This document shows, piece by piece, positions 10,946-50,579 of a stretch of DNA of 64,000 nucleotides. The position numbers and the translations under genes were made by a program. This DNA comes from Candidatus Poribacteria bacterium (GTDB taxonomy: Bacteria; Poribacteria; WGA-4E; WGA-3G). How positions within the stretch are numbered: the first letter of the stretch is position 1; each line of letters begins with the position of its first letter. The notes under the pieces were generated by a model. That model saw nothing but the letters and a program-made list of their open reading frames with translations. It ran no database searches and was not told the origin of the DNA. The stretch is from assembly GCA_965215265.1 (NCBI GenBank), contig OZ244048.1, forward strand, positions 2,976,001 through 3,040,000, in the 5' to 3' direction.

Positions 10946-12472
10946 CTATCTTTCGTGCAGGGCATCGGGCAGTTGGCAAAATGTAATGCCCAAGTTTGTG
11001 AGTTCGCGTTGCCCGATGTAAGTGCCCGCTCCATACACAACCGCCCGCCTATTCTTATCACGGCTGGCATCGTGGATTTGGCGCGCCCGCTCTAAGGTGA
11101 GCATAGCCGCATCGCTCTGCAGGTAGTCGAGAGCCGGTTTGTAGAGGAGATAGTAGTCCGTTGTGTCGTCGCTATGAAAAAGTCCGTTCTCATTTTTCGC
11201 GGAGAGTGCATCAGTTGGGACGGCAACGCCGGAGGCGGTATAGAGGAGGTTTGCGGCGAGTGTTGCATACGGGGGTAAGGCTTCTCCTGTGAGCATTGTG
11301 TCGGCTGTGATGGGTTCGCCGAGGGTGCAGTAGGTAAAGGAGCCGCCTAATCCGTCCCGGAGTGGTGCGTTGCGTGCTGTGGGGATGCCGTTGATGACGC
11401 GTCTGACACGTTCAGCGGTGATGGTATCGGCATAATCTTCGCATTCAATGAGGATGAACTTTCGGTTGCCGTTATCTGCTTTGTTGAGGGCGAGGACAGC
11501 ATGGGCGGTGGTACCGCTGCCGGCGAAGGAGTCTAAGATGATGGCAGACTGATCATCCAGCATCCCTATCATTCTCTGAATGAGATTGACATTCTTTTCG
11601 CCATTAGGAAAATTGAAACGAGTATCGTATTCTTGAATATCTGTCCAATTAGAATCCAACATTTTGCTATTACTAGCATCAATCAAGTATTGAGGTTTCC
11701 CAGTACGCGGATTGGCACGTAGTCTCCCGTTGGCGATTAGCTTCGCCGCCCTTTCCTTAGAATACATCCAATGTCTTCCCTTTGGAGGTTGCATACCAAA
11801 AAGTTCATACGCTGTTGAAGTTTCACCAGGAGCATCAAAGGCATGCCAGCGTTTTCCTTTTTCCTGAAATGTTGTTGGTGGCTTAATTAACCCCGATGAG
11901 GATTTAGCATAAAATAAAACGAAATTGTATCCACGATTTAAGGCGCGGATGTGCTCGCCTGCTCTGATACTTTTCTTCACCCTGGCGACAGCGAAAATGT
12001 TGCGAAAGTTCTCCTCCCCAAAAATCTCGTCCATCAACATCCGCAGGTGGTGTTGCTCATTATCATCAATAGAAATAAAAATGATACCATCTTCGGCAAG
12101 CAGTTCTTTGAGCAGATGCAATCTCGGCCACATCATACACAACCATTTATCGTGCCGTTCTAAGTCTTCACCGTCAACAGGCTGGTTAGCCATAAGCCAG
12201 CCTTTCATCAGCGGACTGTTGACGTTGTCGTTGTAAACCCACCCTTCATTGCCGGTGTTGTAGGGCGGATCGATATAGATGCACTTAATACGGTTGGCAT
12301 ACCGGGGCAGCAATGCTTTGAGTGCATGCAGGTTATCGCCGTGGATGATGAGATTATCATCTGCTTGGGCAGGGTTACAGGAACGGTTAGTGTCCTGTTC
12401 CAGTGGGCGGTATGGGACGGTGAGGTGGTGTGCATAGATATGCTGTTTGCCTTTGAACTCAAGTGTGGGCAT
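10946..12472 (-). CDS. mod: Type III Mod adenine methyltransferase, copy A (TRD ~11543-12017)
   Basis: 'IYIDPPYNTG', 'ISIDDNE', 'LDSFAGSGTT'. Alternative start at 12508. Confidence 0.92.
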   Translation of the reverse strand: MPTLEFKGKQHIYAHHLTVPYRPLEQDTNRSCNPAQADDNLIIHGDNLHALKALLPRYANRIKCIYIDPPYNTGNEGWVYNDNVNSPLMKGWLMANQPVDGEDLERHDKWLCMMWPRLHLLKELLAEDGIIFISIDDNEQHHLRMLMDEIFGEENFRNIFAVARVKKSIRAGEHIRALNRGYNFVLFYAKSSSGLIKPPTTFQEKGKRWHAFDAPGETSTAYELFGMQPPKGRHWMYSKERAAKLIANGRLRANPRTGKPQYLIDASNSKMLDSNWTDIQEYDTRFNFPNGEKNVNLIQRMIGMLDDQSAIILDSFAGSGTTAHAVLALNKADNGNRKFILIECEDYADTITAERVRRVINGIPTARNAPLRDGLGGSFTYCTLGEPITADTMLTGEALPPYATLAANLLYTASGVAVPTDALSAKNENGLFHSDDTTDYYLLYKPALDYLQSDAAMLTLERARQIHDASRDKNRRAVVYGAGTYIGQRELTNLGITFCQLPDALHER

Positions 12473-12519
12473 TGGACAACTCCAGTCAGTATGATTTGAA
12501 AAAGTCATTTACCTCAATT

Positions 12520-12548
12520 AGCATATCACATATCACGTGGAAAGTCAA
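12520..12548 (-). promoter_or_regulatory. sigma70-like promoter between the two mod copies
   Basis: TTGACT-17 nt-TATGCT on the minus strand. Confidence 0.6.
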
Positions 12549-12588
12549 GAGAATATTCAATCTTTTAGGAGGATATTTGGTTTGAGTT

Positions 12589-14250
12589 TTACCTTTCGTG
12601 CAGGGCATCCGGCAGTTGGCAAAATGTAATGCCCAAGTTTGTGAGTTCGCGTTGCCCGATGTAAGTGCCCGCTCCATACACAACCGCCCGCCTATTCTTA
12701 TCACGGCTGGCATCGTGGATTTGGCGCGCCCGCTCTAAGTTAAGCATAGCCGCATCGCTCTGCAGGTAGTCGAGGACCGGTTTGTAGAGGAGATAGTAAT
12801 CCGTTGTGTCGTCGCTATGAAAAAGCCCGTTCTCATTTTTCGCGGCGAGTGCATCAGTTGGGACGGCAACACCGGATGCAGTATAGAGGAGGTTTGCGGC
12901 GAGTGTTGCATACGGGGGTAAGGCTTCTCCTGTGAGCATTGTGTCGGCTGTGATGGGTTCGCCGAGGGTGCAGTAGGTAAAGGAGCCGCCTAATCCGTCC
13001 CGGAGCGGTGCGTCGCGTGCTGTGGGGATGCCGTTGATGACGCGTCTGACACGTTCAGCGGTGATGGTTTGGGCATAATCTTCGCATTCAATGAGGATGA
13101 ACTTTCGGTTGCCGCTGTCTGCTTTGTTGAGGGCGAGGACAGCATGGGCGGTGGTACCGCTGCCGGCGAAGGAGTCTAAGATGATATCATCTTCGCCGCA
13201 AACCATGTTAATCAGATATTTTATTAACGAAGTTGGCTTGGGATAGTCAAATTTATCAGTACCAATAATGGAAACCAATTCTTTATTTGCTTCTTCATTA
13301 GTACCTACTTGACATTCCTTATGCGTGATGAGGTTCGACGGGATCTTCACCCGTTGGTTCTGTTTACGCTCATAACGGATAGAAAACTGATGGCTCTTTA
13401 TGAGGAACTGCGTTTCGGCTGCAATCTCGCGCGTGACAGTCTCTTGCACCCATTTAAATCGGCCTTCCACCTTTAGATTATTCAGGAGCTTCCCATTTTT
13501 CACCCGAACTTCCTTAAGGAGCCTCACTCTTCCATAATTTCCGGGGTTATAGGCTCCATCTCTAAGATTGACTGTGCCAAATGCCTCCTTTGGGAATTCG
13601 AGGGAGCGAACGGTATTTGACTCATTGAGTAACGGCATGTCTCCCCCTGCCGTTTGCCCACCGAAGAGCTGGAGTTTTTTATCGGCCGATTTCCTGTAAC
13701 AAATCAACGGTTCCAGTTTTCGGCGGATAGTCTTTGACAAACTAGGTGGGGTTGCCGTTCGCATCCAAGCGAACTGTGCAGCGAAGTTGGTTTTGCCAAA
13801 AATCTCATCCATCAACATCCGCAGGTGGTGTTGCTCATTATCATCAATCGAAATAAAAATGATACCATCTTCGGCAAGCAGTTCTTTTAACAGATGCAAT
13901 CTCGGCCACATCATACACAACCATTTATCGTGCCGTTCTAAGTCTTCACCGTCAACAGGCTGGTTAGCCAGAAGCCAGCCTTTCATCAGCGGACTGTTGA
14001 CGTTGTCGTTGTAAACCCACCCTTCATTGCCGGTGTTGTAGGGCGGATCGATATAGATGCACTTAATACGGTTGGCATACCGGGGCAGCAATGCTTTGAG
14101 TGCATGCAGGTTATCGCCGTGGATGATGAGATTATCATCTGCTTGGGCAGGGTTACAGGAACGGTTAGTGTCCTGTTCCAGTGGGCGGTATGGGACGGTG
14201 AGGTGGTGTGCATAGATATGCTGTTTGCCTTTGAACTCAAGTGTGGGCAT
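12589..14250 (-). CDS. mod: Type III Mod adenine methyltransferase, copy B (TRD ~13186-13795)
   Basis: N- and C-terminal regions near-identical to copy A at DNA level; unrelated central domain ending 'FDYPKPTSLI'. Confidence 0.92.
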   Translation of the reverse strand: MPTLEFKGKQHIYAHHLTVPYRPLEQDTNRSCNPAQADDNLIIHGDNLHALKALLPRYANRIKCIYIDPPYNTGNEGWVYNDNVNSPLMKGWLLANQPVDGEDLERHDKWLCMMWPRLHLLKELLAEDGIIFISIDDNEQHHLRMLMDEIFGKTNFAAQFAWMRTATPPSLSKTIRRKLEPLICYRKSADKKLQLFGGQTAGGDMPLLNESNTVRSLEFPKEAFGTVNLRDGAYNPGNYGRVRLLKEVRVKNGKLLNNLKVEGRFKWVQETVTREIAAETQFLIKSHQFSIRYERKQNQRVKIPSNLITHKECQVGTNEEANKELVSIIGTDKFDYPKPTSLIKYLINMVCGEDDIILDSFAGSGTTAHAVLALNKADSGNRKFILIECEDYAQTITAERVRRVINGIPTARDAPLRDGLGGSFTYCTLGEPITADTMLTGEALPPYATLAANLLYTASGVAVPTDALAAKNENGLFHSDDTTDYYLLYKPVLDYLQSDAAMLNLERARQIHDASRDKNRRAVVYGAGTYIGQRELTNLGITFCQLPDALHER

Positions 14251-14350
14251 TGGACAACTCCAATTCAGAAGTGCGGTTGATCCAAAATTTGCTGTGAAAA
14301 TATCCAAATATGTTGAATTTCAGCGGAGCAGCGTGAGCAACCTTTTTAAG

Positions 14351-14380
14351 AGTTTAGCATAAATTAGTAGCGGATGTCAA
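14351..14380 (-). promoter_or_regulatory. sigma70-like promoter for mod B
   Basis: TTGACA-18 nt-TAAACT with a TG extension. Confidence 0.55.
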
Positions 14381-14546
14381 GCAATTTCTCTACTTGTCTC
14401 TTGACATTCATGCTACATTACCCGGTAGGAGTTGGCTTTTGCCTATAAGTTTCGGTTTGTCGCCTTGAGATTCGGCGTGCCCCCACAGGTCTTCCGGGCG
14501 ATGTGATGCAGGGGAAAGAGAAGTTTTGAAGAGTGGTTAAGTTGTG

Positions 14547-15329
14547 TTATTTCCCCTGTATGGTACTAATCTCATCTTCAGAGATTTTGTGGACGCTTTT
14601 GGGGTTGAAGGTCTGGGTTGTGTCTATGCGGAGTGCTACCTCTATTCTGCCCCCGGTGAGTACAAAGAATTGGATTAAGAACCCGCCGCCTTGCATGGCT
14701 TCGACCTGATATTCATCCGGGTCAAGTCCGTCCATCCAGGTTGGGAGTGCTGCGTCAAAGCGGGTGTCAGTGATGACTTCGTAGGGCAGTGCAATGATGA
14801 GGGTGCCGGGTGCATCGCCGATGGCATTTCCGATAATGTGCCGTTTATCTACCATGAAGGGTACAACGCGGCTGGCGTATTCAAAATCGTCGGCTGTGGT
14901 TCTTTCTGGTGGGACAATTCCCCAGGTCAAGTGGTGGATAAAAGGGTTTCCGTATCCCTGCGCGAGCATATGTTGGCGTGCTATTTTGTCAACCGGATGT
15001 ACGACAGCGACATAGTCAAACCAACCATCGTATCGAGCCGGATTGTCTGATGGCAGCTGCGCGGAGACGTTGATGTAGTCACATCCATCAACTGGGGAGG
15101 GATAACAACGTGCATCCCATCCGTTAATATAACCGAGTTGTTTCAGTCCGTCTGCGACGAGGTGTGGTGGATCACAGAAAATTGCAGCGTGATCCATGTT
15201 AGGGCGGAGTTGGATGCCGGCCTGGGTAACGTGCGTTGCCACCTCGGTCGCCTCTGCGAAACGTTGTTCTGCGTTTTCAATTGTTAGGTAGTTATTGAAA
15301 TTGGTGGGCAATATAATTGTGCGTTGCAT
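14547..15329 (-). CDS. Hypothetical protein, probably VOC/HPPD-like metalloprotein
   Basis: GGAGG SD before ATG 15329. 'DHAA', 'IHHLTW' and 'LIQFF..GRIEVALR' resemble HPPD-type metal-ligand motifs. Confidence 0.6.
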   Translation of the reverse strand: MQRTIILPTNFNNYLTIENAEQRFAEATEVATHVTQAGIQLRPNMDHAAIFCDPPHLVADGLKQLGYINGWDARCYPSPVDGCDYINVSAQLPSDNPARYDGWFDYVAVVHPVDKIARQHMLAQGYGNPFIHHLTWGIVPPERTTADDFEYASRVVPFMVDKRHIIGNAIGDAPGTLIIALPYEVITDTRFDAALPTWMDGLDPDEYQVEAMQGGGFLIQFFVLTGGRIEVALRIDTTQTFNPKSVHKISEDEISTIQGK

Positions 15330-15489
15330 GAAGGACCTCCTACAACAGAATTTTAGCAAAAATTATCTTTGGGTGCAACTGTTTTTTTTGTCCGCGATTC
15401 GTGGCATTAAGTGTTATAGATGTTTTACAGTTTTCTGAGTTAGGATTTATGGATTTATGAGTTTTCAGGTGCGTAGGAGATGAGGTTCG

Positions 15490-15625
15490 TAGTAGCGCGA
15501 TGAATTGCGCGTTACGGGGTTATAGAAAATGGGGTGCCGTGTTATTTTCGTTCAGCGGAGCGATAGGTGTATAGAAACGCGTGTCTCTCCACTTAACTGC
15601 TCCGTTAGAAGCACAATGTTTATAC
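15490..15625. repeat. REP-like intergenic palindromes
   Basis: GTAGTAGCGCGATGAATTGCGCGTTAC (GTAG plus hairpin) and GCGGAGC...GCTCCGT; TTCAGCGGAGC also occurs at ~14319. Confidence 0.5.
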
Positions 15626-15727
15626 AAAAACGATTCATCGCACATTTTTGTAGGGGAATCTGCTGTGCCCGGTGTGCGGCGGTATACTTTCTGTTCGTTG
15701 TGGGGTGATTCATCGTAAGGCTCTATT

Positions 15728-17650
15728 TCAAGCGTTAGATGCGTGTTCGGTGCGAATCCAAACAGCCATCTGCCCTTGTTCACGATTGCACCATGCATAG
15801 TAAGGAATCGCGGTGACTTCTATGGATTTGCGTTTGTGTGGGGTTCTCCGATAGAGCTGGTCTTTCCAATCCGTGGGTTCGGTTATCATACCTCTGCCTC
15901 GGATCTGGGTGATGCCGCCCAAGCGATCAGCGGTAAACTCTGCTTCCAATTCGGCGTTTTCAGGAATGGACAACGTCTGGAGAATCCCATCAGGATTGTC
16001 ACATTCCTCAAAACAGTAAACAAGTGGTCCTCGCCGTAAAGCAAATCTTCCGAGGTTTTCTGTAACAAGCGGATGTGCATAAATTCGAACCGTCGGCATT
16101 GACAAAATTAATTCTACAGTATCGTTTGGCTGCCATTCGCGAGAAATTGAGAGATATCCGTTGGTATCCATCCGCTGTGAGTTGTCTAATTTGCCGTTGA
16201 TACGGACGGTGAACTCGTCGCACCAACTTGGAATTCGCAGGTTGAATGCAAAGGGAACGGGGGCTTTTGGTGTAAGGGTTAGCTTGATATCACCACTCCA
16301 CGGATAGTCAGTTTCTTGTCTGATTTCGACACCGGTATTTCCTGCGACGGTGGCTAAAGCCGTCCCGCCGATATATAAGTTAACCCAGATGCCTTCGTCA
16401 TCTTGGGCGTAGATGTACTGCCCCAAAGAGGCGAGAAGTCGGGCGATATTGGGTGGACAACATGCGCATCCAAACCAACTGTGGCGGTGCCGGTCGCCGT
16501 GGCTACCGAGCGGATTTTGGTAAAAGAAGCTTGTACCATCTAACGCGAGCCCGGACAGGATGCCGTTATAAAGGGCAGTCTCTAGGACATCAATGTAGCG
16601 TGATTCTCCGTGCAGTAGGAACATGCGCTGTGCCCAGAATACTAGCCCGATAGAGGCACAAGTTTCCGCGTAAGCCGAGAAGTTTGGCAATTCATAGTCA
16701 GTGGTGAATCCTTCATTGTGGGCAGAGGGGCCGATGCCGCCGGTGATATAAAACCGTTTCTCTGTTACATTGCGCCACAGTTGTTCCAATGCGTCAATGA
16801 GTGCTGGATTTCTAGTCTTCGCAGCGATGTCAGCTGCAGCAGCATAGAGGTACATGGCGCGTACTGCATGCCCGACACACTCTGTCTGCTGCTCTATCGG
16901 GAGATGTGCTTGTGCATAGCACCCATCAAACTTCCCGTTGCGTGTAAAGTGATGCCGGTAAGCCGCAATTCCACCGCAAATATCCGAATTCTGCAATTCT
17001 TTTTCAAAAATTGAAGGCGATTGCCCGCGTCGTGTGAGAAAGAATTGGGCGAGTTCGAAATAGCGCGATTCGTCTGTTGCCTCTGCCAACTTGACAAGTG
17101 CGAGTTCAATTTCCTCGTGTCCCGGAGTACCGTCCCGCTTTCCGTCGCCAAAAATGCTGTCAATATGCTCGGCGAACTGAGTAGCAACATCCAGGAGGGT
17201 TGTCTTTGCTGTTGCTTGGTAGTGGGCAACGCCTGCCTCAAACAGATGCCCGGCGCAGTATAATTCGTGCATCATACCGAGATTCTGCCATCTTTTGGTC
17301 GGTTCAACTAATGTGAAGTAGGTATTGACGTACCCGTCGGATTGTTGACTTTTGGCAATTTTGGTGATAAGCTCCTCAAGCTCACTCTCCCATGGTGGGT
17401 GTGGATGGGTGTACAACGTGTAGGAGGCGGCCTCTACCAATTTGTAAACATCTGAGTCGTTAAAAAAAATGCCCTCAAATTCGCCGTCCATTAAACCGCC
17501 TGCTTTCGCGAAGTTATCAATTCGCCCAGTTATACGGCACTGCTTGAGTTGGTGTGGAATGGTCTTCTGTGAGTTTGTTAGTTGACGGGGTGCCCAAAAC
17601 CCGTCGGCGATAGTGACAGCAGTAAAGGGCAACGGCTTCAAAACGGACAT
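15728..17650 (-). CDS. GH127 beta-L-arabinofuranosidase-like glycoside hydrolase
   Basis: 'FNDSDVYK', 'HELYCAGH', 'GHEEIELAL', 'GHAVRA', 'YAETCAS', 'CACCPPN'. Confidence 0.92.
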   Translation of the reverse strand: MSVLKPLPFTAVTIADGFWAPRQLTNSQKTIPHQLKQCRITGRIDNFAKAGGLMDGEFEGIFFNDSDVYKLVEAASYTLYTHPHPPWESELEELITKIAKSQQSDGYVNTYFTLVEPTKRWQNLGMMHELYCAGHLFEAGVAHYQATAKTTLLDVATQFAEHIDSIFGDGKRDGTPGHEEIELALVKLAEATDESRYFELAQFFLTRRGQSPSIFEKELQNSDICGGIAAYRHHFTRNGKFDGCYAQAHLPIEQQTECVGHAVRAMYLYAAAADIAAKTRNPALIDALEQLWRNVTEKRFYITGGIGPSAHNEGFTTDYELPNFSAYAETCASIGLVFWAQRMFLLHGESRYIDVLETALYNGILSGLALDGTSFFYQNPLGSHGDRHRHSWFGCACCPPNIARLLASLGQYIYAQDDEGIWVNLYIGGTALATVAGNTGVEIRQETDYPWSGDIKLTLTPKAPVPFAFNLRIPSWCDEFTVRINGKLDNSQRMDTNGYLSISREWQPNDTVELILSMPTVRIYAHPLVTENLGRFALRRGPLVYCFEECDNPDGILQTLSIPENAELEAEFTADRLGGITQIRGRGMITEPTDWKDQLYRRTPHKRKSIEVTAIPYYAWCNREQGQMAVWIRTEHASNA

Positions 17651-17781
17651 CTATTTATCTCCTTTCTCTGGGTTCCGGCAAGACTTACCGGCTTCTTATT
17701 GCAATCCGATGCAACGTCTGATTCGGGGCGTAACGTTCTAAACCTTGCCGTTAATTGTGGCATATTTATAGCGATTCATAT

Positions 17782-18867: not shown

Positions 18868-19033
18868 CTTTTTATCTCCGGATTTGGTTAGGTATCGGCA
18901 TTAAGGTAGAATGCCGGTGAATAAAAAATGCCTTTATGAATTCGTGAATGGGTTTCCGCGGGTATCAGTGCCTTAATAGTCGTGTCTGGGCATTCTGCAG
19001 CGTGTCTCCTAAGAGACTTTGGTCTGATGCATT

Positions 19034-19915: not shown

Positions 19916-20068
19916 GACTCCTTTGCAATGTGAATGTGTACGTGAATGATAGCAGAGAACAGCGTTAATATCAAGGAAGATTCTATTTTTTTTTCGGAAT
20001 AAGTCGTTTTGAACTTACAAAAAGTTGTTCAAAAGTGCTATAGGAAATATAACGGTTTTTAGCGGGTT

Positions 20069-20356
20069 TCAGAACAGCGGTTTGAGGCGTAGCGTCTGCT
20101 TTTCTCCGTCTGTTAAAGGCGCGACCTGCTTGGGTTTTATCTCAACCACTTCAGTCGATTCGTCAAGTGTTTCCCCGGCGGGCACGATATAGGTTCTCGC
20201 GTCTGCGGTCGTTTGGAGAATGGCAGTCGGGGGTGTGCTGTCATCTGTCGGGTGAATTGTACCTAGTGAGCGGTACGGTTCACGAGGGACGGGCGGTGTC
20301 CAACCTAACGGACGAAAAAGGTTATTGTCTAGGATGGTTCTATTCTGTTGGCACAC
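20069..20356 (-). pseudogene. Hypothetical protein fragment (accessory)
   Basis: Protein-like 'NNLFRPLGWTPP..EPYR.LGTI' segment without a convincing start. Confidence 0.4.
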
Positions 20357-20417
20357 ACTTTCATCCTCATCGTCGCTGTGTTCTATAAAGAATCCTCCTT
20401 TGCGGGGTTTGTAACCG

Positions 20418-20856: not shown

Positions 20857-21350
20857 CTTCACCAAAAGTTTCACGAGGGGTTTTCGTGAACTTCACACAT
20901 TGTGCACAAGCGAATTTTCTTTCCTGATTACGCGCAGAAAAAAAACACTTGAATAAGGAAGGGAGATTTATAAGTGAAAACCTTACTTCCGGATGAGCAT
21001 CTTCCGCTTGATTGTGAAACTCCTTTTATTGGATGTTGTCATCCCGCCTTTATCCTCTTGTAAGCAGTGGAGGTAAAGGAGGCGACAACATTTTTCAAAT
21101 CTTCAAAATTAAACAGAGACAGCATTTTGCCCTTTGTAAGTAATAAGATAATTATACAGGTAGCCGAGCAGAAGTTAAGTTTTTTTGGCTTCAAACGGTT
21201 TGGTTAGTGGTATGCAATTCACGAAAAGTTTCACGAGAGGTTTTCGTGAACTTCACACATCGTGCACAGACATCACCAGCTGCCCAAAACTTAATTACGC
21301 GTAGACAAAAAATCCTCCTTGAATAAGGAAGGGGGATTTATATCCGTGAA
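20857..21350. repeat. ~125-bp degenerate direct repeat pair (20857-20980 and 21217-21350)
   Basis: TTCAC.AAAAGTTTCACGAG.GGTTTTCGTGAACTTCACACAT.GTGCACA...TTACGCG.AGA...CTTGAATAAGGAAGGG.GATTTATA in both copies. Confidence 0.85.
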
Positions 21351-21359: not shown

Positions 21360-22448
21360 TTATAGTTCCAACGCCTGTAGGAATGCTTGAAAACTGTCTG
21401 TTTTGACGGCTATCAGCAGCAATTGCTCGAGGTGTTCTAGGTTAGAAAGCGTTTCGAGTTTCTGCGTGGCAGGCTCTATATCACGGTCAGGGAATCGCGC
21501 GTTGAGGACGGCGGTTATATTTTTGATAGCCGTCTGGCACGCCCCTTGTTCTCTCCCTCGTTCAATGCCTCGTTCAATGCCTTGTGCTATGCCTCGTTCG
21601 AAGAGGAATTCGGCCATTGTCTCTGCCATCGGTGCTACCTCCATATCACTCGTATGCCGGTCTACCAGTTCTATCAACTCTTCTTGCTCTTCCTTTGGAC
21701 GCCGATGCTGAATCAGCAACACCAGATACATTATCGCTTCCCTACGCTGCCCGGAATCGACTGCATCAAGCGTCTCCAGCTGCGTCAAAGTCTCTCGTAA
21801 CGCGCGGCTTATAGACGCTTTGTCCGAATCTCCTTGTTGCAGCACTCTCATCAGCCACCCGAATGGATGCGCCGCCGCCGTCAGCGTCGCCTTGTCTGTG
21901 CCTGTCAGATTCAGAAACAGGATGTCAAATCTCGGAACGAATCGAGAGAGCGCCGCAGGCAGATTCATCATCGCCTCAAGTGTCAGAGGCTTTTCCCACC
22001 GCCGCTCCCCTATGTAAAACACCACAGGCAGAATCGGCGGCAATACATGCTCTCTTCTCGGCATCTTCTCGGCCGCCCACCGCCGCCGCTCCGCGTCCCA
22101 AATCAGCATCATGTAGAAAAGCACCCGAAACCCCATTGTCGCATCTACCGTCGATTGATGTTCAATCAGCAGATAGAGGAGCAGCTCTGCCGCATCCTCA
22201 TCACCATCACTTTTGAAGGGCACCCGATATACAATGTCTGCCTCTTGTTCTCGGAGTGTCGCGGGCAGTAGACTCCTATTCATTGGAACCAGATGCGCAA
22301 AATCAATCAGTTCGGCGAGTTCTGCCGCAACGATTTCTAACAAGCCCCGGACGTTTTCCCTGTTTTCTAATAAGCGGCGTATACTCCGATCGGAAAAGTT
22401 CGCAACAGACATCTCGGACAAAAAGTCGTGGATGTCCTTCTTCTGCAT
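21360..22448 (-). CDS. Rpn family recombination-promoting nuclease / YhgA-like (Transposase_31, PD-(D/E)XK)
   Basis: 'EADIVYRV', 'LLIEHQS', 'FRVLFYM', 'LPPILPVVFY.G', C-terminal 'GIERGIERG'. Confidence 0.88.
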   Translation of the reverse strand: MQKKDIHDFLSEMSVANFSDRSIRRLLENRENVRGLLEIVAAELAELIDFAHLVPMNRSLLPATLREQEADIVYRVPFKSDGDEDAAELLLYLLIEHQSTVDATMGFRVLFYMMLIWDAERRRWAAEKMPRREHVLPPILPVVFYIGERRWEKPLTLEAMMNLPAALSRFVPRFDILFLNLTGTDKATLTAAAHPFGWLMRVLQQGDSDKASISRALRETLTQLETLDAVDSGQRREAIMYLVLLIQHRRPKEEQEELIELVDRHTSDMEVAPMAETMAEFLFERGIAQGIERGIERGREQGACQTAIKNITAVLNARFPDRDIEPATQKLETLSNLEHLEQLLLIAVKTDSFQAFLQALEL

Positions 22449-24000: not shown

Positions 24001-24240
24001 GTGAGAAAGCAGCGACTAAGGTAGATGCTGCTTGAGTTAATAAGAGGGTTAACGGACGTGAAGTTAGGGGGGGGTCAATCGTCTTAACAGGGACTTAAAA
24101 CACACGACAGCACGGCATACGCACGCGTTCGCGCCAAAACTACAACCCCGCAACACGGGGCCAGGCACTCTGCTCTTCTGGGACACGGACTCTTGGTGTT
24201 TCATCTTTTTGATTTTTCCCTGTCTGATTCAAGTGAATGC

Positions 24241-24459
24241 ATTTTATTAGAAAACAACGTTTTTTGGCAAACTTTTTTTTGCATCACTCAAAAGTTGTTT
24301 TGCATTATCGCATAACGAACGTTTGTTTGTCAACTTTTTTTTCCGAAATAAAAAATCAACGAAAACATTCTATCAGAAAATAACACTTTTTGGCAAACTT
24401 TTTTTTTGCATCACTCAAAGCGTATTTTATATTATAACACAATCTCTTTTTTTTGTCAA
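24241..24459 (-). promoter_or_regulatory. Four tandem sigma70-like promoters
   Basis: TTGACA-17-TATAAT (24431-24459), TTGCCA-18-TAGAAT (24367-24396), TTGACA-18-GATAAT (24304-24333), TTGCCA-18-TAAAAT (24241-24270). Confidence 0.75.
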
Positions 24460-24532
24460 GTCTTTTTTCAGATTTTTCGTATTTTTGTATACTGCGGCAC
24501 ATCTCAGTTTGATGAGGTATGCTCCATTTTGG

Positions 24533-25540
24533 CTACTGTGCTTTCGCAAGGTACTCTGTTTCGAGAAACGTTTCTAATTCCTCAAAAGTATCGAAGATGC
24601 GTTCGCATAAGTTTTCGAAGAAGATACTCCGTTCGCCTTTATAGACGGCATAAACAGGTTTGTTATAGCGTGAGGCGTAGTTCATCTCGCTCAGGACCCC
24701 TGGCGATAGTTTATCTGTCGGGTAAATAACAACGACAAAATCGCTCTGGTGCAAAAATTGATAATCCCGCGAGATGGTTCGCGTCTTAATTTGCTCTATA
24801 GTAGATGCATCAATTTGACTAAGGGTTGAAGGTTCGCTCTGTCTCACCCAAGCCATATCTTTAATTGAAAGTGGATCAAACACAATAAAAGCAGTTCTCA
24901 GTTTTTCACCGAGGGTTCGAATCGCTTCAATTTCTTGTGGAGTCTCTTGCAGTATCGTAATAGGATAGCTGAGATACAGTGTCGGTTTTGATGAGAAGAT
25001 GAGTTCATAAAAATTATTAAGTCCGTGTTGTCGTGCGACGGTATAGTAAGGTTTTTCACGCATATTTGCGAGTTGCTTAGTCAGGTACTCCTCTTCGTCA
25101 ATCCAGACGTTGAGCATATCGTGGCCCATTCCACTCCATTGGGGATTGCTTTCCATCCGCTGCGAGATGTCGGCGATATTGTCAACGACGTTAATAAAAA
25201 GGTCTGGTGGAAAACCCTCAATTTCTTTAAAGGAAATTCCCTCAACGAGTTCGCCTCTCCATCGGAAACAAGCGTGTAGTCCAATCACTGCATGTTCGTA
25301 GTTGTCTGCGAGGCTTGCAATTTCATAAAAAGCGGTGCGGCGGGCAAGGGATAAGACCGCTGGATCGGAATCGAGAACCTTTTCAGTGAATCGGACTCCG
25401 GATGCAGCGGCGGTGCGGTGCATATAATCACCTACATTAAAGAAACCGATATTCAGTTCCTTCTCATGGCAGAGTGCTTCAAAATCTGCCACTAATTGTT
25501 TGCGGCCGGAGCAGCTGATACCAGTACAGATAATGTTCAT
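24533..25540 (-). CDS. P-loop nucleotide-kinase-like domain fused to a nucleoside 2-deoxyribosyltransferase-like domain
   Basis: N-terminal 'ICTGISCSGRK'; C-terminal 'YLSYPI...FDP...RD...SD...SPGVLSEMNYA...KPVY'. Confidence 0.7.
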   Translation of the reverse strand: MNIICTGISCSGRKQLVADFEALCHEKELNIGFFNVGDYMHRTAAASGVRFTEKVLDSDPAVLSLARRTAFYEIASLADNYEHAVIGLHACFRWRGELVEGISFKEIEGFPPDLFINVVDNIADISQRMESNPQWSGMGHDMLNVWIDEEEYLTKQLANMREKPYYTVARQHGLNNFYELIFSSKPTLYLSYPITILQETPQEIEAIRTLGEKLRTAFIVFDPLSIKDMAWVRQSEPSTLSQIDASTIEQIKTRTISRDYQFLHQSDFVVVIYPTDKLSPGVLSEMNYASRYNKPVYAVYKGERSIFFENLCERIFDTFEELETFLETEYLAKAQ

Positions 25541-26548: not shown

Positions 26549-26803
26549 TTTTTCGTATCTCTCCGTACCATCGCCGTTTCTGTTATGCTAACTCGTGTGT
26601 AAATCTCGTCGGAGCCGCACTAGGTTATGATTCCTCTTTTTCGTATCTCTCCGTACCATCGCCGTTTCTGTTATGCTAACTCGTGTGTAAATCTCGTCGG
26701 AGCCGCACTAGGTTATGATTCCTCTTTTTTGTATCTCTCCGTACCATCGCCGTTTCTGTTATGAGTGCTCGTGTGTAAATCTCGTCGGAGCCGCACTAGG
26801 TAT
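26549..26803 (-). repeat. Three tandem 88-bp units (60-bp element + linker)
   Basis: GTATCTCTCCGTACCATCGCCG at 26555, 26643 and 26731. Confidence 0.95.
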
Positions 26804-26853
26804 TGTCAATAAGTCACCTTTCAGTTCTGTCCATTTCTAATCTCCAATACGTT

Positions 26854-30405: not shown

Positions 30406-30635
30406 TTTTTTGTATCTCTCCGTACCATCAACGTCTATGTTTTGATGGCTCGTGTGTAAATCTCGTCGGAGCCTCACTATGCTATGATTCCTCTTTTTCG
30501 TATCTCTCCGTACCATCAACGTCTATGTTTTGATGGCTCGTGTGTAAATCTCGTCAGAGCCTCACTATGCTATGATTCCTCAATCACTTTTCGTGCGAGC
30601 TCCTCAATCTCCGCTGGATCCCCGCCTTGCTCCCG
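30406..30635 (-). repeat. Two tandem element units + peptide tail (upstream flank of murB)
   Basis: GTATCTCTCCGTACCATCAACG at 30412 and 30500. Confidence 0.92.
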
Positions 30636-42517: not shown

Positions 42518-42577
42518 TGGATGTCCTCCTTTCGGTTCTAAAAATAAAGCGTCAAAAAGTCAATTCCAGCCAAAACA

Positions 42578-43417: not shown

Positions 43418-43635
43418 TTTTTTTCCACCTATTTGGGTGTGCTTTTTTATCACAGAATTATAACCTATTTTTGCTTATTTTGAAACATAAATCTTCAGGT
43501 ATCTTCATCGCTAATGTTTTAGATGAAGTACCTTGATATCACCGGAATTGCATCAATGCGACCTTATTTTCTACAAAAAATTGGTAGACTCTGATATAAT
43601 AGGAGATATTGAACGCAAAATGGAGGAAGTTCCCG

Positions 43636-44550
43636 GTGAAACTCGGATTCGTGAGTGCTATTTTACCAGAACAGACTTTAGAGGAAGTCGTGCAGTTTTC
43701 ATCAAGCGAAGGGTTTGATTGTGTTGAGCTGATGTGCTGGCCGAAAGGGGCGGCTGAGCGCAGGTATGCCGGCGTAACGCACATTGATGTTGTTGAACTT
43801 GGAGAGGCTCAAGTAGAGCGAATTCAGGGAGTGGTAGCGGACGCTGGAATAACGATTAGCGGTTTAGGCTACTATCCGAACCCACTCACACCCGATCCGG
43901 CGGAGGCTGCGATTCATATTGCGCACCTCAAACGACTGATTGTGGCAGGCGAACGTTTATCGGTGGACGTGGTAAACACATTTATTGGTAGAGATTGGAC
44001 GTGCTCTATTGAGGGGAATTGGTCTCAATTTAAGAATGTCTGGAAACCGCTCATCCAATTCGCAGGAGACCACGGAATCCGCATCGGAATTGAGAATTGT
44101 CCGATGTTTTTTACAGAGGACGAGTGGCCTGGTGGAAAAAATCTCGCCTATTGTCCATCAATTTGGCATCGAATGTTTGAGGAGATTCCGGCGGCTAATT
44201 TTGGACTCAACTTTGATCCGTCCCATTTTATCTGGCTTCAGATGGACTACGTGAAACCGCTGACGACTTTTTCAGAGCGCATTTTCCACGTCCACGCGAA
44301 AGACGCAAGAATCGATCGTGCGCGGCTTGATGAAGTCGGCATTCTTGCAACGCCGTTATCGTATCATACGCCTAAGTTACCAGGGCTCGGCGATGTTGAT
44401 TGGGGACGCTTTTTCTCTGTTTTGAGCGATACCGGCTATGACGGGGCCGTCTGTGTTGAAGTGGAGGATAGAGCGTACGAAAAGAGTTTAGAGACGCGGA
44501 AACGCGCACTACGGCAAAGTAACTTGTTTCTGCGCCAGTTTATCGGGTAA
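43636..44550 (+). CDS. Sugar phosphate isomerase/epimerase
   Basis: GGAGG + GTG; 'IENCPM', 'FDPSH', 'HVHAKD', 'EVED'. Confidence 0.88.
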
Positions 44551-44604
44551 CGTCGCCCGGGCTGCAGAGTGTGCCTACAGGAGCCGATAAAGGACCCAAC
44601 ACTT

Positions 44605-45774
44605 ATGGACAGCCAAGTCTGGTTAACGGCAGAACGTTCCGCCCTAAAACGAGAAGGCATATTGCGGCAGCTGCGGACAGTCCAGAATGCACCTAGGGGC
44701 AGAATTAATCTTGATGGCCGCGAGGTTGTTTTGCTCGCTTCAAACAACTATCTCGGCTTGAGCACCCATCCAAAAGTTGTGGCCGCAGCGGTAGAGGCGA
44801 CACAAGCATTCGGCACCGGTGCGAGCGGCTCACGGTTGATTTCAGGAAACAGCAGTCTCTACGCTGACTTGGAAGCAACGCTCGCAATCTTAAAGCGGAC
44901 AGAAGCGGCGCTCGTCTTCAGTTCCGGTTACACAGCAAACACCGGCACTATCCCTATCCTGGCTGGGGAAGGTGACCTCATCCTGAGCGACGCGTTGAAC
45001 CATGCCAGCATTATAGACGGGTGCCGACTCAGCCCTGCCATCAAAAAGATCTATCGGCACTGCGATATGGAACATCTCCAGACGTTACTCGCTGAGTCTG
45101 CCTGCTTTAAGCGTCGACTCATCGTAACCGATGGCGTTTTCAGTATGGACGGCGACATAGCCCCGCTCCCTGACATCTGCGACCTTGCGCAACAATACGG
45201 CGCGATTGTGCTGGTTGATGATGCGCACGGTTTTGGCGTTTTAGGAAAAGATGGCGGCGGTACTGTTGAACATTTTGGCCTGCAACACCACGGTATTATC
45301 CAGATGGGGACACTCAGCAAAGCAATCGGCGGATTGGGCGGTTATATCGCCGGAAGCCAGGCTCTAATTGAGTTGCTTATCAACCGCGCGCGAAGCTTTA
45401 TCTTTACTACTGGGCTCCCGCCGGCGACATTAGCCGGTGCAACCGCGGCACTACAGATCATCCGTTCTTCACCAGAATTGCGGCAGCGTCTATTCTCTCA
45501 TGCGAAACGTCTCAAAACCGCGTTGACAGGCTTAGGGCTGAAGCTGCTCCCCAGCCAAACCCAGATTCTGCCGGTTATACTCGGAACCCCGCAACGTGCA
45601 TCTCATTTTGCGCAAGCCTTGCTTTCAGAGGGCATCTTCGCCCCGGCTATTCGACCGCCATCTGTCCCGGCAGGTACAAGCCGCTTACGCGTTACGGTGA
45701 TGGCAACGCACACCTCAGCCGATATACAGCGGGCGATTGATGGGTTTGCGCATGTGTTAAAATCACCTGATTAG
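44605..45774 (+). CDS. bioF: 8-amino-7-oxononanoate synthase
   Basis: 'SNNYLGL', 'GASGSRL', 'NHASIIDG', 'DDAHG', 'GTLSKA', 'AIRPPSVP'. Confidence 0.9.
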   Translation: MDSQVWLTAERSALKREGILRQLRTVQNAPRGRINLDGREVVLLASNNYLGLSTHPKVVAAAVEATQAFGTGASGSRLISGNSSLYADLEATLAILKRTEAALVFSSGYTANTGTIPILAGEGDLILSDALNHASIIDGCRLSPAIKKIYRHCDMEHLQTLLAESACFKRRLIVTDGVFSMDGDIAPLPDICDLAQQYGAIVLVDDAHGFGVLGKDGGGTVEHFGLQHHGIIQMGTLSKAIGGLGGYIAGSQALIELLINRARSFIFTTGLPPATLAGATAALQIIRSSPELRQRLFSHAKRLKTALTGLGLKLLPSQTQILPVILGTPQRASHFAQALLSEGIFAPAIRPPSVPAGTSRLRVTVMATHTSADIQRAIDGFAHVLKSPD

Positions 45775-45898
45775 AGCTCGTTGAAAAAGAGATGAAATAG
45801 AATTTTGTGACATGACGATCGGCTCTCTAGCCTCATTAGGTAAAAAACACCGAAAATTACCGGCGTTAAATTCTTAATCTTCAGTCTAATTTTTTTTC

Positions 45899-45927
45899 TT
45901 GACACTGTTTCCTAAATTTGTTATCCT
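45899..45927 (+). promoter_or_regulatory. sigma70-like promoter followed by a leader hairpin (~45957-45998)
   Basis: TTGACA-17-TATCCT with TG; ACAGTGCAGCAGCG...CGCTATTGCATCACTGT. Confidence 0.6.
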
Positions 45928-46046
45928 TTTAAGTAAGGACTGAACCGTTGATTAAATACAGTGCAGCAGCGTTAGGAGGAGCCGCTATTGCATCACTGTT
46001 TAACGAAAACCTCCAAAAAACTTTGTCCTAGGAAAGATTGAGAGAG

Positions 46047-46883
46047 ATGAAAAATCAGAAGAGTGACGCGAACTACACGATGGGACGCAGTCAAGAAGAG
46101 ACAGAACGATTAATAGAGCAAGCGCAACTGTATGGAAAGTTGACACAGCGGTTTCTCGTGGAAGCCGGTATTACTAACGGCATGAAGGTACTGGATATCG
46201 GCAGCGGTGCCGGTGATGTTGCCCTGATCTTAGCCGAACTTGTCGGCACAGAGGGCGAGGTGCTCGGCGTGGATGTAAATGCCGAGATTCTTGAGACGGC
46301 ACGCACACGCACCGAGGAAGCCGGCTACACCAACGTCACATTTATTGCAGGCGACGCACGAACGCTTGAATTGGATACCGATTTTGATGCAGTCGTCGGT
46401 AGATTGGTGCTGATGTACATGGTGGACCCCACAGACGCGCTAAAACGTTTGGCAACCCGCCTGCGCCCCGAGGGGATCGTCGCCTTTCAAGAGACAGATT
46501 TTACACCTTATCAAGCATTCATACATCCGGACACGCCCCTCATAAATCAATTGATTGAGTGGGGTGCCAACGTATTTCAACGTTCCGGGGCACACACCAG
46601 TATGGGGATGGACCTCTACAAGGCTTTCGTTGATGCCGGTTTGCCCGAACCAACACTCCATTTTGCAGCACCAGGCGGTAACCCTGAAACGGGTGCAGCT
46701 TATCATTATATCGCACGCAGCTTTCAAAGTTTTTTGCCGCTTCTAGAAAAATTCGAAATCGCCACGGCAGCGGAGGTCGATGTGGAAACCCTCGCCGAGC
46801 GGCTCCAGCAGGAAGTCGTTAACGCAAAACGCCCGTTCTTCTTGCCGCCATGGATATCCGCTTATGCAAAAAAAATCCAGTAA
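46047..46883 (+). CDS. Class I SAM-dependent methyltransferase
   Basis: 'VLDIGSGAGDV', 'GVDVN', 'FDAVVGRLVL', 'LRPEG'. Confidence 0.88.
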   Translation: MKNQKSDANYTMGRSQEETERLIEQAQLYGKLTQRFLVEAGITNGMKVLDIGSGAGDVALILAELVGTEGEVLGVDVNAEILETARTRTEEAGYTNVTFIAGDARTLELDTDFDAVVGRLVLMYMVDPTDALKRLATRLRPEGIVAFQETDFTPYQAFIHPDTPLINQLIEWGANVFQRSGAHTSMGMDLYKAFVDAGLPEPTLHFAAPGGNPETGAAYHYIARSFQSFLPLLEKFEIATAAEVDVETLAERLQQEVVNAKRPFFLPPWISAYAKKIQ

Positions 46884-46933
46884 CGCGGCTACAGATTAAC
46901 GGTAATCCACAACTACTTGGAAAGAACATACCT

Positions 46934-48651
46934 ATGCCTACACTCGACTTCAAAGGTAAGCAGTTCATCTATTCGCATCACCTCACCGTGCCTTTTCGCA
47001 CGTTGGAGGTGGATGCGGATAAATCATTAATGTCTATTACCCCCCCCCTTCTTCTAATTTGTTAAGTAGTAATCTTATCATTCACGGCGACAACCTGTAC
47101 GCCCTCAAGGCACTCCTGCCGCGTTATGCGGGCAAGATTAAGTGCATCTATATAGATCCGCCATACAACACCGGCAAAGAAAACTGGGTCTATAATGACA
47201 ACGTTAACAACCCACTCATGCAGGCGTGGCTTGAGAAAAATAGCCCCGTTGATGGTGAAGATTTAGAGCGACACGATAAATGGTTGTGTATGATGTGGCC
47301 CCGGCTGCATTTACTGCGTGAATTGCTCTCCGAAGATGGCGCGATTTTTATCTCTATTGATGATAACGAACAACACCGTTTGCGAATGCTGCTGGATGGA
47401 ATTTTTGGCGGAGACAATTTCATTACTAACATTGCGGTAGTTTCAAACTTAGCAGGCAGTAGCGATCAATTTGGATTTGCGGGTGCTCATGAACACTGCT
47501 TGGTATATGCCCAAAATCGTAGTGAGGTGAGTTTAGGGCGTTTTTCCGTTGATGAAAATGCTCTTGAAAAATGGGAACAAGATGAAAAAGGGTATTACAA
47601 ACCGGAACTTTTACAAAGAGGTAGTTTAACCTATTCAGAGTCGATGCATTATCCTATTTTCGTAGGTCCGCAGGATAATATTGAAGTTACAGAAGACGAT
47701 AGCGAGCCTGTAGAGAACGGTCCTTTTATAACTGTATACCCAATTGTGCGTAATGGAAACGCGAATGCAACATGGAGATGGAGCAAGAAAAGAATATTGG
47801 ATAATCCTACTGATGTATTTGCTAAACGTCGTGACGACGGGAGCATCGCAATATATTCAAAGCAACGGCCCCAACTCGGAGACTTGCCTACTCAGAAACC
47901 TAAATCTGTATTCTACAAACCTGAGTACGGTAGTCGTGCTGGCGGACAAACGTTATCAGATATATTTTCTGAATCTACCCAGAAGTTTCCCTACCCAAAA
48001 GCGATTTCTTTGATAACAGACTTGTTACGAATTGGTGCACCGAACTCTGGGGACATTATTCTCGACTCCTTCGCCGGTAGTGGTACCACCGCGCACGCTG
48101 TGCTCGCCCTCAACAAAGAAGATGGTGGCAACCGGAAGTTTATCCTCGTTGAATGCGAAGATTATGCCGACACCATCACGGCTGAACGGGTGAGACGGGT
48201 GATGAACGGCGTTGAGGCAGCTAAAGACGAGACGTTGCGTCAAGGCCTCGGCGGTTCCTTTACTTACTGCACCCTCGGTGAGGCGATTGATACAGAGCGG
48301 ATGCTCACGGGAGATAATTTGCCCTCTTATGAGGCCTTGGCGAATTATGTCGCTTACGTCGCCACCGGCAACTCGCTTCCAACTGTTGTGCATCGGAAGG
48401 ATTTCTTTTTCGGAGAAACTGAGAATCTCCTCTTCTATCTGATTTACGAACCGAGTCTTAAATTTTTAGAGAGCAACCGGTCTGCACTAAACGAGAAACG
48501 TGCAGTGCAGATAGCCAAGCGCTGCGAGACAACGGGTAAAAGGGCGTACGTCTATGCGGCACAGAAGTTTATGAGTCAGAAAGAGTTGACACCGCTGGAT
48601 ATTACGTTTTGTCAGCTGCCGTATAGCATTCATCAACTTCCTGAAGGGTAA
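46934..48651 (+). CDS. mod: Type III Mod, copy C, frameshifted at a C9 tract (47040-47048); TRD ~47371-48051
   Basis: The N-terminus MPTLDFKGKQ... homologous to mods A/B is in a different frame from the DPPY/FAGSGTT body; one extra C restores ...SITPPPSSNLLSSNLIIHGDN. Confidence 0.9.
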
Positions 48652-48654
48652 AAA

Positions 48655-48784
48655 CAGTGAAAGATGCGGCGGATTATCCGTGCGTTGCATGGGAAAAATT
48701 ACGAGAAGAAGCCGTGTTACCGGGCGTTCCGGACAAAAAAGGAGCAGATAAGATTCCAGAGTACATTTTGCACGAAGCCGCCTC
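48655..48784 (+). pseudogene. Remnant of the res 5' region between the mod copies
   Basis: Near-identical to res 50730-50859 (GCGGCGGATTATCCG...GAAGCCGCCTC). Confidence 0.88.
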
Positions 48785-48822
48785 TTAACGGTAATCCACA
48801 ACTACTTGGAAAGAACATACCT

Positions 48823-50579
48823 ATGCCTACACTCGATTTCAAGGGCAAGCAGTTCATCTATTCGCATCACCTCACCGTGCCTTTTCGCACGTTGGAGGTG
48901 GATGCGGATAAATCATTAATGTCTATTACCCCCCCCCTTCTTCTAATTTGTTAAGTAGTAATCTCATCATTCACGGCGACAACCTGCACGCCCTCAAGGC
49001 ACTCCTGCCGCGTTATGCGGGCAGGATTAAGTGCATCTATATAGATCCGCCATACAACACCGGCAAAGAAAACTGGGTCTACAATGACAACGTTAACAAC
49101 CCACTCATGCAGGCGTGGCTTGAGAAAAATAGTCCCGTTGATGGTGAAGACTTAGAACGACACGATAAATGGTTGTGTATGATGTGGCCCCGGCTGCATT
49201 TACTGCGTGAATTGCTCTCCGAAGATGGCGCGATTTTTATCTCTATTGATGATAATGAAGTGCATCGGCTCCGCGCTATCATGGATGAAATTTTTAATGC
49301 AAAAGAGAGCTTCCCTGATGGCAACTTTGTTGGACAATTTGTCTGGGCGGCCGGTAGAAAAAATAACTCCCGGCTTTTTTCCAACTCGCATGGTTACATT
49401 CTATGTTATCTTAAAAACCATGAGTCCCTAAATGAGCAGCGAATTACTTGGCGTGTGCGAAAGCAGGGGCTTGAGGATATTTATAAAAAACATCGACAAC
49501 TCGAACGGGAATATGGCGAAGACTTTCCACGGATTGAAGCAGAATTGGCAGCATGGTTTAAGGGGCTCCCCGATGTACATCCTGCCAAGCGGCATAAAGG
49601 CTACTGCTATGTGGATAGCCACGGCCCTTATAGCTCCTCTGATACTTCTGCACCAGGTGGTAACGGAGAGAGGTATTCGGTGCACCATCCGTTAACAGGT
49701 AAACCGTGTGCGATTCCGTCAGGCGGTTGGCGTTATACTCAACGAGAAATGAATGAATTGCTCGCAGATAACCGAATTCTGTTTGGTTCTGACGAAAGAT
49801 ATGTCCCGAGATGCAAACTTTACCTAAAGGAGACTGAATACGAAGTCCCTTATAGCGTTTTTTACAAAGATGGCCAGGGTGCGACGAAACGATTGCACTC
49901 ACTCCTTGGTCAACCGTTCCCTTTTCCTAAAGATGAAGACATTCTCCAGTTGCTGTTTGAAGCTGCCACGGGTCCTAATGACATCATTCTCGACTCCTTC
50001 GCCGGTAGTGGTACCACCGCGCACGCTGTGCTCGCCCTCAACAAAGAAGATGGTGGCAACCGGAAGTTTATCCTCGTTGAATGCGAAGATTATGCCGACA
50101 CCATCACGGCTGAACGGGTGAGACGGGTGATGAACGGCGTTGAGGCAGCTAAGAACGAGACGTTGCGTCAAGGCCTCGGCGGTTCCTTTAGCTACTGCAC
50201 CCTCGGTGAGGCGATTGATACGGAGCGGATGCTCACGGGGAATAATTTACCTTCTTATGAGGCCTTGGCGAATTATGTCGCTTACGTCGCCACCGGCAAC
50301 TCGCTTCCAACTGTTGTGCATCGGAAGGATTTCTTTTTCGGGGAGACTGAGAATCTCCTCTTCTATCTGATTTACAAACCGAGTCTTAAATTTTTAGAGA
50401 GCAACCAGTCTGCACTAAACGAGAAACGTGCAGCACAGATAGCCAAGCACTGCGAGACAACGGGTAAAAGGGCGTACGTCTACGCAGCACAGAAGTTTAT
50501 GAGTCAGAAAGAGCTGACACCGCTGGATATTACGTTTTGTCAGCTGCCGTATAGCATTCATCAACTTCCTGAAAGGTAA
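48823..50579 (+). CDS. mod: Type III Mod, copy D, frameshifted at a C9 tract (48929-48937); TRD ~49260-49979
   Basis: Flanks near-identical to copy C, unrelated central domain, same frameshift. Confidence 0.9.

Follow-up and report, generated by a model that had tools for sequence, protein, structure and literature searches.

Two Type III restriction-modification loci with paired mod genes and a single res gene in a Candidatus Poribacteria genome, one of them probably phase-variable

Two loci, here termed A and B, within a 64,000-nucleotide stretch of the genome of a Candidatus Poribacteria bacterium (assembly GCA_965215265.1, contig OZ244048.1, positions 2,976,001 to 3,040,000 of the forward strand; this whole stretch is hereafter the window) each carry two mod genes followed by a single res gene. 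We consider it likely that A and B are both Type III restriction-modification systems and that in each of them one Res serves two Mod paralogues, and this judgement covers the explanation as a whole, including the origin of the paired genes and their expression as set out below. Judged by its motifs, each Mod is shown to be a complete, predicted beta-class adenine methyltransferase with its own recognition cassette.

Results

Gene content and Type III identity

All four mods matched the Pfam family N6_N4_Mtase (E 2e-34 to 2.6e-28) and the PADLOC profile MTase_III (E 1e-146 to 1e-163), and both res genes matched ResIII in Pfam and, across their full length, REase_III (PDLC03653) in PADLOC (E 1.9e-185 and 1.8e-233). 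An alignment of the mods revealed that DPPY (motif IV) and FAGSG (motif I) are invariant in all four copies, with the cassette in between, and in the alignment of ResA with ResB the GGGKT, DEAH, SAT, QxxGRxxR and PD...(D/E)TK motifs can be read. The PDB relatives of the mods are Type III Mods (6k0w; 4zcf, the EcoP15I Mod; and 7dsu, Mbo45V), EcoP15I Mod being a detectable homologue at E 4.8e-40 in a search of PDB sequences. The start of res follows the stop of the last mod on the same strand after 12 nt in locus A and 2 nt in locus B. On gene content and alignment, both loci share with the multi-mod, single-res Type III loci of the Mycoplasma bovis type the possession of at least two complete mods with conserved ends and different target recognition domains (TRDs).

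The original prediction, drawn from the bare sequence, had described two homologous but diverged loci in opposite orientation some 33 kb apart, and this description holds: the loci are mutually inverted and separated by ~32.6 kb, and a blastn comparison of the mods of A with those of B aligned only pieces of 147-350 bp, at 78-87% identity. At the protein level, the C-domains of the two loci are ~56% and the Res proteins 46% identical.

Table 1. Features of loci A and B and of the intergenic repeat between them, with positions in the window
Feature	Position	Strand	Details
Locus A	8366-14307	minus	mod-mod-res
modA1	12589-14307	minus	Type III Mod, 572 residues from a TTG start; ATG at 14250 gives the family-typical start MPTLEF...; in frame, without simple repeat
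modA1 cassette	13186-13795	minus	610 bp, GC 0.454; conserved blocks 13796-14262 and 12593-13185
A1-A2 spacer	12509-12588	minus	80 bp, unique; promoter-like site 12548-12520; no res fragment
modA2	10946-12508	minus	Type III Mod, 520 residues; family-typical start at ATG 12472; in frame
modA2 cassette	11543-12017	minus	475 bp, GC 0.432; conserved blocks 12018-12484 and 10950-11542
resA	8366-10933	minus	Type III Res, 855 residues; helicase motifs and C-terminal PD...DTK nuclease motif
Locus B	46934-53227	plus	mod-mod-res
modB1 conserved N-terminal frame	46934-47065	plus	MPTLDFKGKQF...; runs to a stop in a frame other than that of the body
modB1 C9 homopolymer	47040-47048	plus	C10 or C7 would fuse the N-terminus to the body
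modB1 body	47059-48651	plus	530 residues from an internal TTG
modB1 cassette	47371-48051	plus	681 bp, GC 0.421; conserved blocks 46896-47370 and 48052-48654
resB 5' fragment in B1-B2 spacer	48655-48784	plus	130 bp, 95.4% to resB nt 149-278 (50730-50859)
modB2 conserved N-terminal frame	48823-48954	plus	out of frame with the body
modB2 C9 homopolymer	48929-48937	plus	one extra C would join the frames
modB2 body	48948-50579	plus	543 residues from an internal TTG
modB2 cassette	49260-49979	plus	720 bp, GC 0.465; conserved blocks 48785-49259 and 49980-50582
resB	50582-53227	plus	Type III Res, 881 residues; helicase motifs and PD...ETK nuclease motif
~88-nt repeat sites	25549; 26549-26812; 28942; 29126; 30406-30581		three copies in tandem at 26549-26812, two at 30406-30581

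Conserved flanks and variable cassettes

Within each locus, blastn aligned the two mods over a 5' block and a 3' block, of 467 bp at 98.9% and 593 bp at 97.1% identity for modA1 and modA2, and of 475 bp at 97.7% and 603 bp at 96.5% for modB1 and modB2, in agreement with the earlier claim that the mods of one locus are near-identical outside the TRD. At the cassette edges, identity drops from 97-100% to below 50% inside a single 60-nt bin on both sides, and the four cassettes gave no blastp match to one another at E<=1e-3. This pattern of conserved flanks around a variable cassette is far beyond chance. The GC fraction of the cassettes (0.42-0.47) is below that of the 3' conserved blocks (0.50-0.56), and alignment to EcoP15I places the swapped piece at about residues 221-435, reaching beyond the structural TRD (263-384) at both ends. 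It had been predicted that all four TRDs differ and are exchanged at almost the same boundaries; the TRDs do differ and the 3' boundary, immediately ahead of the DIILDSFAGSG motif, is common to both loci, but the 5' boundary in locus B lies ~13 codons upstream of that in locus A.

As described for EcoP15I (PMC4490356), the N-terminal and methyltransferase domains form the Mod dimer, one Mod protomer reads the DNA through its TRD while the other methylates, and the protomer that reads also contacts Res, through its C-terminal domain. By homology with EcoP15I, the parts that are near-identical within a locus would be the dimerization and Res-contact regions. The Mods of one locus would form homo- and heterodimers, all of which would recruit the Res of that locus, and each locus would restrict and methylate two unrelated sites. 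From EcoP15I and Mbo45V we infer a Mod2Res1 or Mod2Res2 complex that would carry out ATP-dependent cleavage at two inversely oriented unmethylated sites. The divergence of C-domains and Res between loci A and B probably keeps the two loci insulated from each other.

Poly-C tracts and reading frame in locus B

Both locus B mods contain a C9 homopolymer that separates the conserved N-terminal segment from the methyltransferase core, and the length of this repeat sets the reading frame in both genes, as in a contingency gene. These two sites are the only G/C runs of at least 9 in the window, and in 1.29 Mb of related loci seven of 11 such runs fall at this same mod site. The open reading frames (ORFs) 3' of the C9 runs stay open for 530 (modB1) and 543 (modB2) codons, the body of modB1 being without the first ~36-40 positions of the family profile. 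Neither locus A mod has a G/C run of at least 7 or a tandem repeat, and both are in frame.

Reading frames were also surveyed in 80 related loci, the best of at least 599 found by a pattern scan. The N-terminal motif was scored in 59 of the 88 mod copies in these loci, the regular expression having failed on the other 29, whose frame was left unscored. Among the scored copies 55 are in frame and four are out of frame; all four of the latter carry poly-C, and no tract-free copy is out of frame. The five mods of one relative, L045, carry C11, C8, C11, C10 and C11 in copies 1 to 5, with copies 3 and 4 in frame and copies 1, 2 and 5 out of frame, and the tract flanks are near-identical in four of the five. 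Differences in tract length together with both on and off states were found among the relatives only. Taken together, the tract pattern points to independent on/off phase variation of each locus B mod, with the C9 runs probably acting as the switch.

Slipped-strand changes in C9 would switch each locus B mod separately. At C9, as sequenced, both mods would be off and at C10 they would be on. Res depends on Mod to locate DNA, which would leave locus B silent at C9; locus A, with both mods in frame and free of repeats, looks constitutive. The four-TRD repertoire that had been proposed for this genome stands as far as its four cassettes are concerned, but only two of the TRDs lie in an in-frame, full-length gene as sequenced. 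Similarly, the absence of an invertase was upheld among the 37 large ORFs scanned, yet a switching device is nonetheless present in the poly-C tracts of locus B. A switch of the inverton or shufflon type was considered and rejected, as the mods of each locus are direct repeats and no integrase or resolvase domain was found in those 37 ORFs. For annotation, the locus B mods should neither be called from an internal TTG or a later ATG nor be discarded as pseudogenes.

The linker at the tract position is, on comparison with database proteins, generally unstable. In five database relatives of modB2 (P0003, P0009, P0010, P0013 and P0014) the linker before NLIIHGDNL contains 1-3 tandem units of 22-23 residues, so that length at the tract site varies in another way as well; in some of the five, the C-terminal domain carries an insertion too. 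The annotated ORF of another relative, P0002, begins just before an ITPPP stretch, which suggests the same kind of frame break.

Relatives of the two loci and independence of the arrays

The relatives are spread over at least 10 phyla, and many belong to sponge-associated lineages, among them Candidatus Poribacteria, Dehalococcoidia/SAR202, Latescibacterota and Poriferihabitaceae; for locus A as for locus B, the closest relatives come from Poribacteria. A family-type res is present in 68 of the 80 loci, and three hold arrays of at least two complete mods, namely L010 and L033 with two each and L045 with five. These three arrays, each ahead of one res, bear out the proposal of the original prediction that the stacking recurs. 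In three loci (L011, L013 and L018), mods are interrupted by insertion sequences (IS elements) of the DDE type.

A tree of 73 mods was built from the conserved core by a quick IQ-TREE run with support from the SH-like approximate likelihood ratio test (SH-aLRT); the mods of L024, L027 and L035 had frame problems and were excluded from both the cassette and the tree sets. Each of the five arrays forms one clade (SH-aLRT 97-100), with values of 100 for A1+A2 and 99 for B1+B2. Locus A falls inside a clade of single-mod Poribacteria loci and locus B adjoins L055/L066. Because the arrays form separate clades and the junctions differ between A and B, this supports an independent, locus-specific origin of the two arrays, in keeping with the earlier view that the duplications are locus-specific. 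Comparison of the flanks with related loci returned matches to distant paralogues only, and the loci therefore sit in different contexts. A search of a plasmid collection gave 104 places in 100 records, all below 60% identity, and a tandem mod array was absent from both multi-place plasmid records among the 25 listed.

Relics of res and the growth of the arrays

The spacer between modB1 and modB2 measures 297 bp and contains a fragment of the 5' part of resB, from which the first ~148 nt of res have been lost between TGAAAGA repeats and which abuts sequence of the kind that precedes mod. As the res fragment is joined to this pre-mod sequence, the duplicated unit would have begun ~37 nt ahead of the mod start and ended within res. 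Three of the five arrays (locus B, L010 and L033) retain a res 5' fragment after their upstream mod: in L010, res nt 1-125 are found at 99.2% identity immediately 3' of mod1, and in L033, nt 1-38 follow mod1 and nt 35-229 precede mod2. In L045, a repeat of 1186 bp covers the C-domain, the spacer and the next N-domain. The res relics appear to mark in-place duplication of mod together with the start of res, and as such they are traces of how arrays of this type grow.

The arrays would have arisen separately at each locus through tandem duplication of a segment that starts shortly ahead of mod and reaches into res at its 5' end. Within arrays, the cassettes are at most 34% identical or show no detectable similarity, and the arrays are therefore not the outcome of simple duplication followed by divergence. 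Either recombination in the conserved flanks would later have exchanged the central cassette, or the segment would have been duplicated through unequal or illegitimate recombination with an incoming allele that carried another cassette.

Exchange of cassettes between loci

Grouping at >=60% identity sorted the 73 mods into 48 cassette types. In 12 pairs of mods from different loci, across phyla, the cassettes are at least 10 points more similar than the C-domains. The modA2 cassette, for instance, is 77% identical to that of L020 (SAR202) and 75% to that of L033 copy 1 (Nitrospirales), with C-domains at 57-64%. The closest cassette to that of modA1 is found in L001 (69%), and the modB1 cassette has its best relative among the 80 loci at just 35%. 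The modB2 cassette type occurs in all 23 database proteins compared, at 68-78% identity, and one of the database proteins, P0023, combines a B2-type cassette with an A-like backbone. Cassettes would, on this reading of the data, circulate horizontally among related systems of several phyla.

Discussion

A multi-mod, one-res architecture with phase-variable mods is already known from M. bovis. According to two reports, Mbo45ORF167P of M. bovis PG45 comprises three neighbouring mods that share conserved ends, differ in TRD and carry GA/AG repeats, next to one res, and duplication followed by acquisition of a TRD has been proposed as its origin (PMC5909438); its mods carry AG repeats of 11, 14 and 24 units, its enzyme is Mod2Res1, and a similar cluster is mentioned for M. 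pulmonis (bioRxiv 10.64898/2026.05.01.722158). Like that system, the window loci have several complete mods by one res, with conserved ends and a variable central TRD, and in locus B only, each mod has a simple repeat at a matching position in its 5' coding part. The M. bovis repeat is an AG dinucleotide that differs in length between copies, whereas here it is a poly-C (or G) homopolymer, and M. bovis is a mollicute pathogen, whereas the window comes from what appears to be the chromosome of a sponge symbiont, and the relatives of its loci span at least 10 phyla. Also unlike M. bovis as described there are the presence of two loci in one genome, one of them repeat-free, a relative with five mods, and relics of res. 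Literature searched on two or tandem mod genes gave no further cases beyond Mycoplasma, and the listing of a search on sponge symbionts showed no report of such arrays. What is new here is thus the host group, the homopolymer switch, the pair of loci of which one is switched and the other is not, the five-mod relative and the duplication relics. This extends phase-variable, multi-specificity Type III systems from mollicutes and host-adapted pathogens to apparently uncultured marine symbionts, in which phage pressure rather than immune evasion would be the likely driver.

Other known systems share single traits with the window loci. Phasevarion mods such as modA, modH and modS (PMC5909438) likewise have a repeat in the mod ORF that gives frame-dependent on/off states and many TRD alleles on a conserved backbone, exchanged by recombination; they usually have one mod per res, or an inactive res, they are described in host-adapted pathogens, and regulation of gene sets has been shown for them, whereas here it would be putative. 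EcoP15I has the same motif order and the same mod-res order, but a single mod and no repeat (PMC4490356). Type I multi-hsdS invertons such as SpnD39III resemble the window loci in that several specificity modules serve one nuclease and several methylation states exist in a population. These invertons use silent half-cassettes, inverted repeats and a recombinase, whereas here there are whole genes, direct repeats and putative repeat slippage; since the mods are complete and directly oriented rather than silent cassettes, the analogy with multi-hsdS Type I loci drawn in the original prediction is weak.

A different history of the arrays would be that one ancient mod-mod-res locus was copied whole, after which gene conversion within each locus kept the copies alike. 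Within-array homogeneity in locus A stops exactly at the coding blocks, and the 1186-bp repeat of L045 shows unequal exchange to be ongoing inside arrays, both of which would suit such concerted evolution. We nevertheless regard it as highly unlikely: with four cassettes that do not match one another there is no cassette orthology between the loci, the junctions are unlike, a res relic being present in B alone, A and B are separated in the tree by many single-mod loci, and a Poribacteria genome, OZ246958.1, has a single-mod A-type locus (L009) together with a single-mod B-type locus (L035). The arrays might instead be a product of assembly, in which cassette alleles of co-existing strains were strung in tandem. 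The sources are apparently metagenome assemblies, and repeats of 470-600 bp at 97-99% identity could mislead short-read assemblers, but the spacers are unique, the res fragment in the B spacer has an internal deletion of its own, the same layout is found in three independent assemblies, some of them titled chromosome, and it has been experimentally established in M. bovis (bioRxiv 10.64898/2026.05.01.722158); an artefact of this kind is extremely improbable.

Turning to expression, the locus B mods could be decaying pseudogenes, or C9 could be a base-calling error rather than a switch. Homopolymers are the main class of long-read sequencing error, and C9 is identical in both copies, both of which are out of frame. 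Against this, the 530 and 543 codons of the two bodies contain no other lesion and resB is intact, G/C runs of 8-28 recur at the exact site in other genomes with mixed frames, and the start of P0002 before ITPPP hints at the same break, so that we hold decay or error to be quite improbable. It is also unlikely, if a little less so, that the main role of these loci is epigenetic regulation as in a phasevarion, with the Mods switching methylation and Res being secondary. Phase-variable Type III mods do regulate in host-adapted bacteria, and the tract-bearing L040, L049 and L080 are without res within 8 kb. Both window loci, however, keep a full-length res with all motifs 2-12 nt after the last mod, locus B adjoins a candidate defence pair, PDC-M41, and 16 of the 68 res-bearing relatives have genes between mod and res, several of those scanned having defence-type domains. 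L040 (C12 at 8098, in frame), L049 (G9 at 8124, in frame) and L080 (C28 at 8104, out of frame) are single mods of Dehalococcoidia with only housekeeping genes around them and are, on this gene content, candidate orphan phase-variable methyltransferases.

Several points weigh against the explanation preferred here, that both loci are Type III systems with a shared Res whose arrays grew in place and whose mods in locus B are switched by poly-C. Gene conversion within arrays could yield the same tree, and concerted evolution may have contributed to the near-identity of the mods of one locus. No res relic was found in locus A or in L045, and the origin there is drawn by analogy. A search of PDB sequences with ResA gave no match, and the formation of heterodimers, the sharing of Res and restriction activity would follow from EcoP15I and Mbo45V. 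The arrays and the tract lengths are those of the assembled sequence. The difference between C9 and C10 could be a homopolymer sequencing error, in which case both mods would be on and the site would still be a contingency tract, and an N-truncated Mod may be made from the internal TTG. As the tract-bearing L040, L049 and L080 have no res within 8 kb, the tract may serve epigenetic switching and not defence. Finally, promoter and terminator scans gave counts that were not above those of shuffled sequence, and separate promoters for modA1 and modA2 are only a suggestion.

Going beyond the preferred explanation, the observations can be joined in a tentative picture that we think possible but doubtful. 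In it, arrays would be combinatorial contingency loci in which the mods toggle independently by homopolymer slippage and share one Res, to give 2^n states per locus. Uncultured symbionts of many phyla would take their recognition cassettes from one shared pool kept in circulation by horizontal exchange, the enzyme would normally work with mixed Mod dimers, and a rare 33-kb inversion through matches of 22-29 nt would create hybrid mods; the longest exact matches between the inverted loci A and B are of 29 and 22 nt. If this picture is true, there would be four restriction and methylation states in locus B and 32 in the five-mod L045, and since a Mod that has just been switched on would encounter Res already in place, there must be some safeguard against self-restriction. 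The finding raises the questions of how a shared Res copes with a newly on Mod and whether Mod heterodimers work.

Neighbouring genes and other elements

Directly downstream of resB, on the minus strand, lie a gene for a DUF5131 protein (53408-54157) and its neighbour (54170-55093), which matched the PADLOC profiles PDC-M41B (E 5.9e-111) and PDC-M41A (E 1.5e-112), respectively. With this candidate PDC-M41 pair next to resB, locus B would therefore be part of a small defence cluster. The 16 res-bearing relatives with genes between mod and res have 0.5-5.1 kb between the two (L001, L007, L009, L014, L021, L022, L023, L025, L035, L046, L047, L058, L059, L060, L066 and L074). ORFs scanned in these inserts encode HicB, HEPN/AbiV, a STAND NTPase with PIN, an IrrE-like peptidase with DUF4411, a lipase and IS605 OrfB; defence-type cargo seems to be inserted preferentially at the junction of mod and res.

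The window also holds PSCyt, PSD1 and DUF1501 genes. Scans of all 64 kb gave no tRNA gene, no Rfam family and no match to a Neisseria-type uptake sequence. Between the loci, an ORF of the YhgA-like Transposase_31 family of recombination-promoting nucleases (21360-22448, minus strand) is the sole recombinase-related match and is preceded by 51-nt direct repeats at 20858 and 21218; no link of this ORF or its repeats to the mod arrays was found. An intergenic repeat of ~88 nt without an Rfam match is present in eight copies at five sites between 25549 and 30635. A G8 run (24067-24074) and an AT-rich tandem repeat of 126 nt (1.8 copies, 24235-24470), both intergenic, are located upstream of an ORF at 24533-25540 that has no family match. 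In the related locus L033, an ORF of 1169 residues (12347-15856) directly 3' of res weakly matched a pPIWI-associated nuclease domain (E 1.4e-07).

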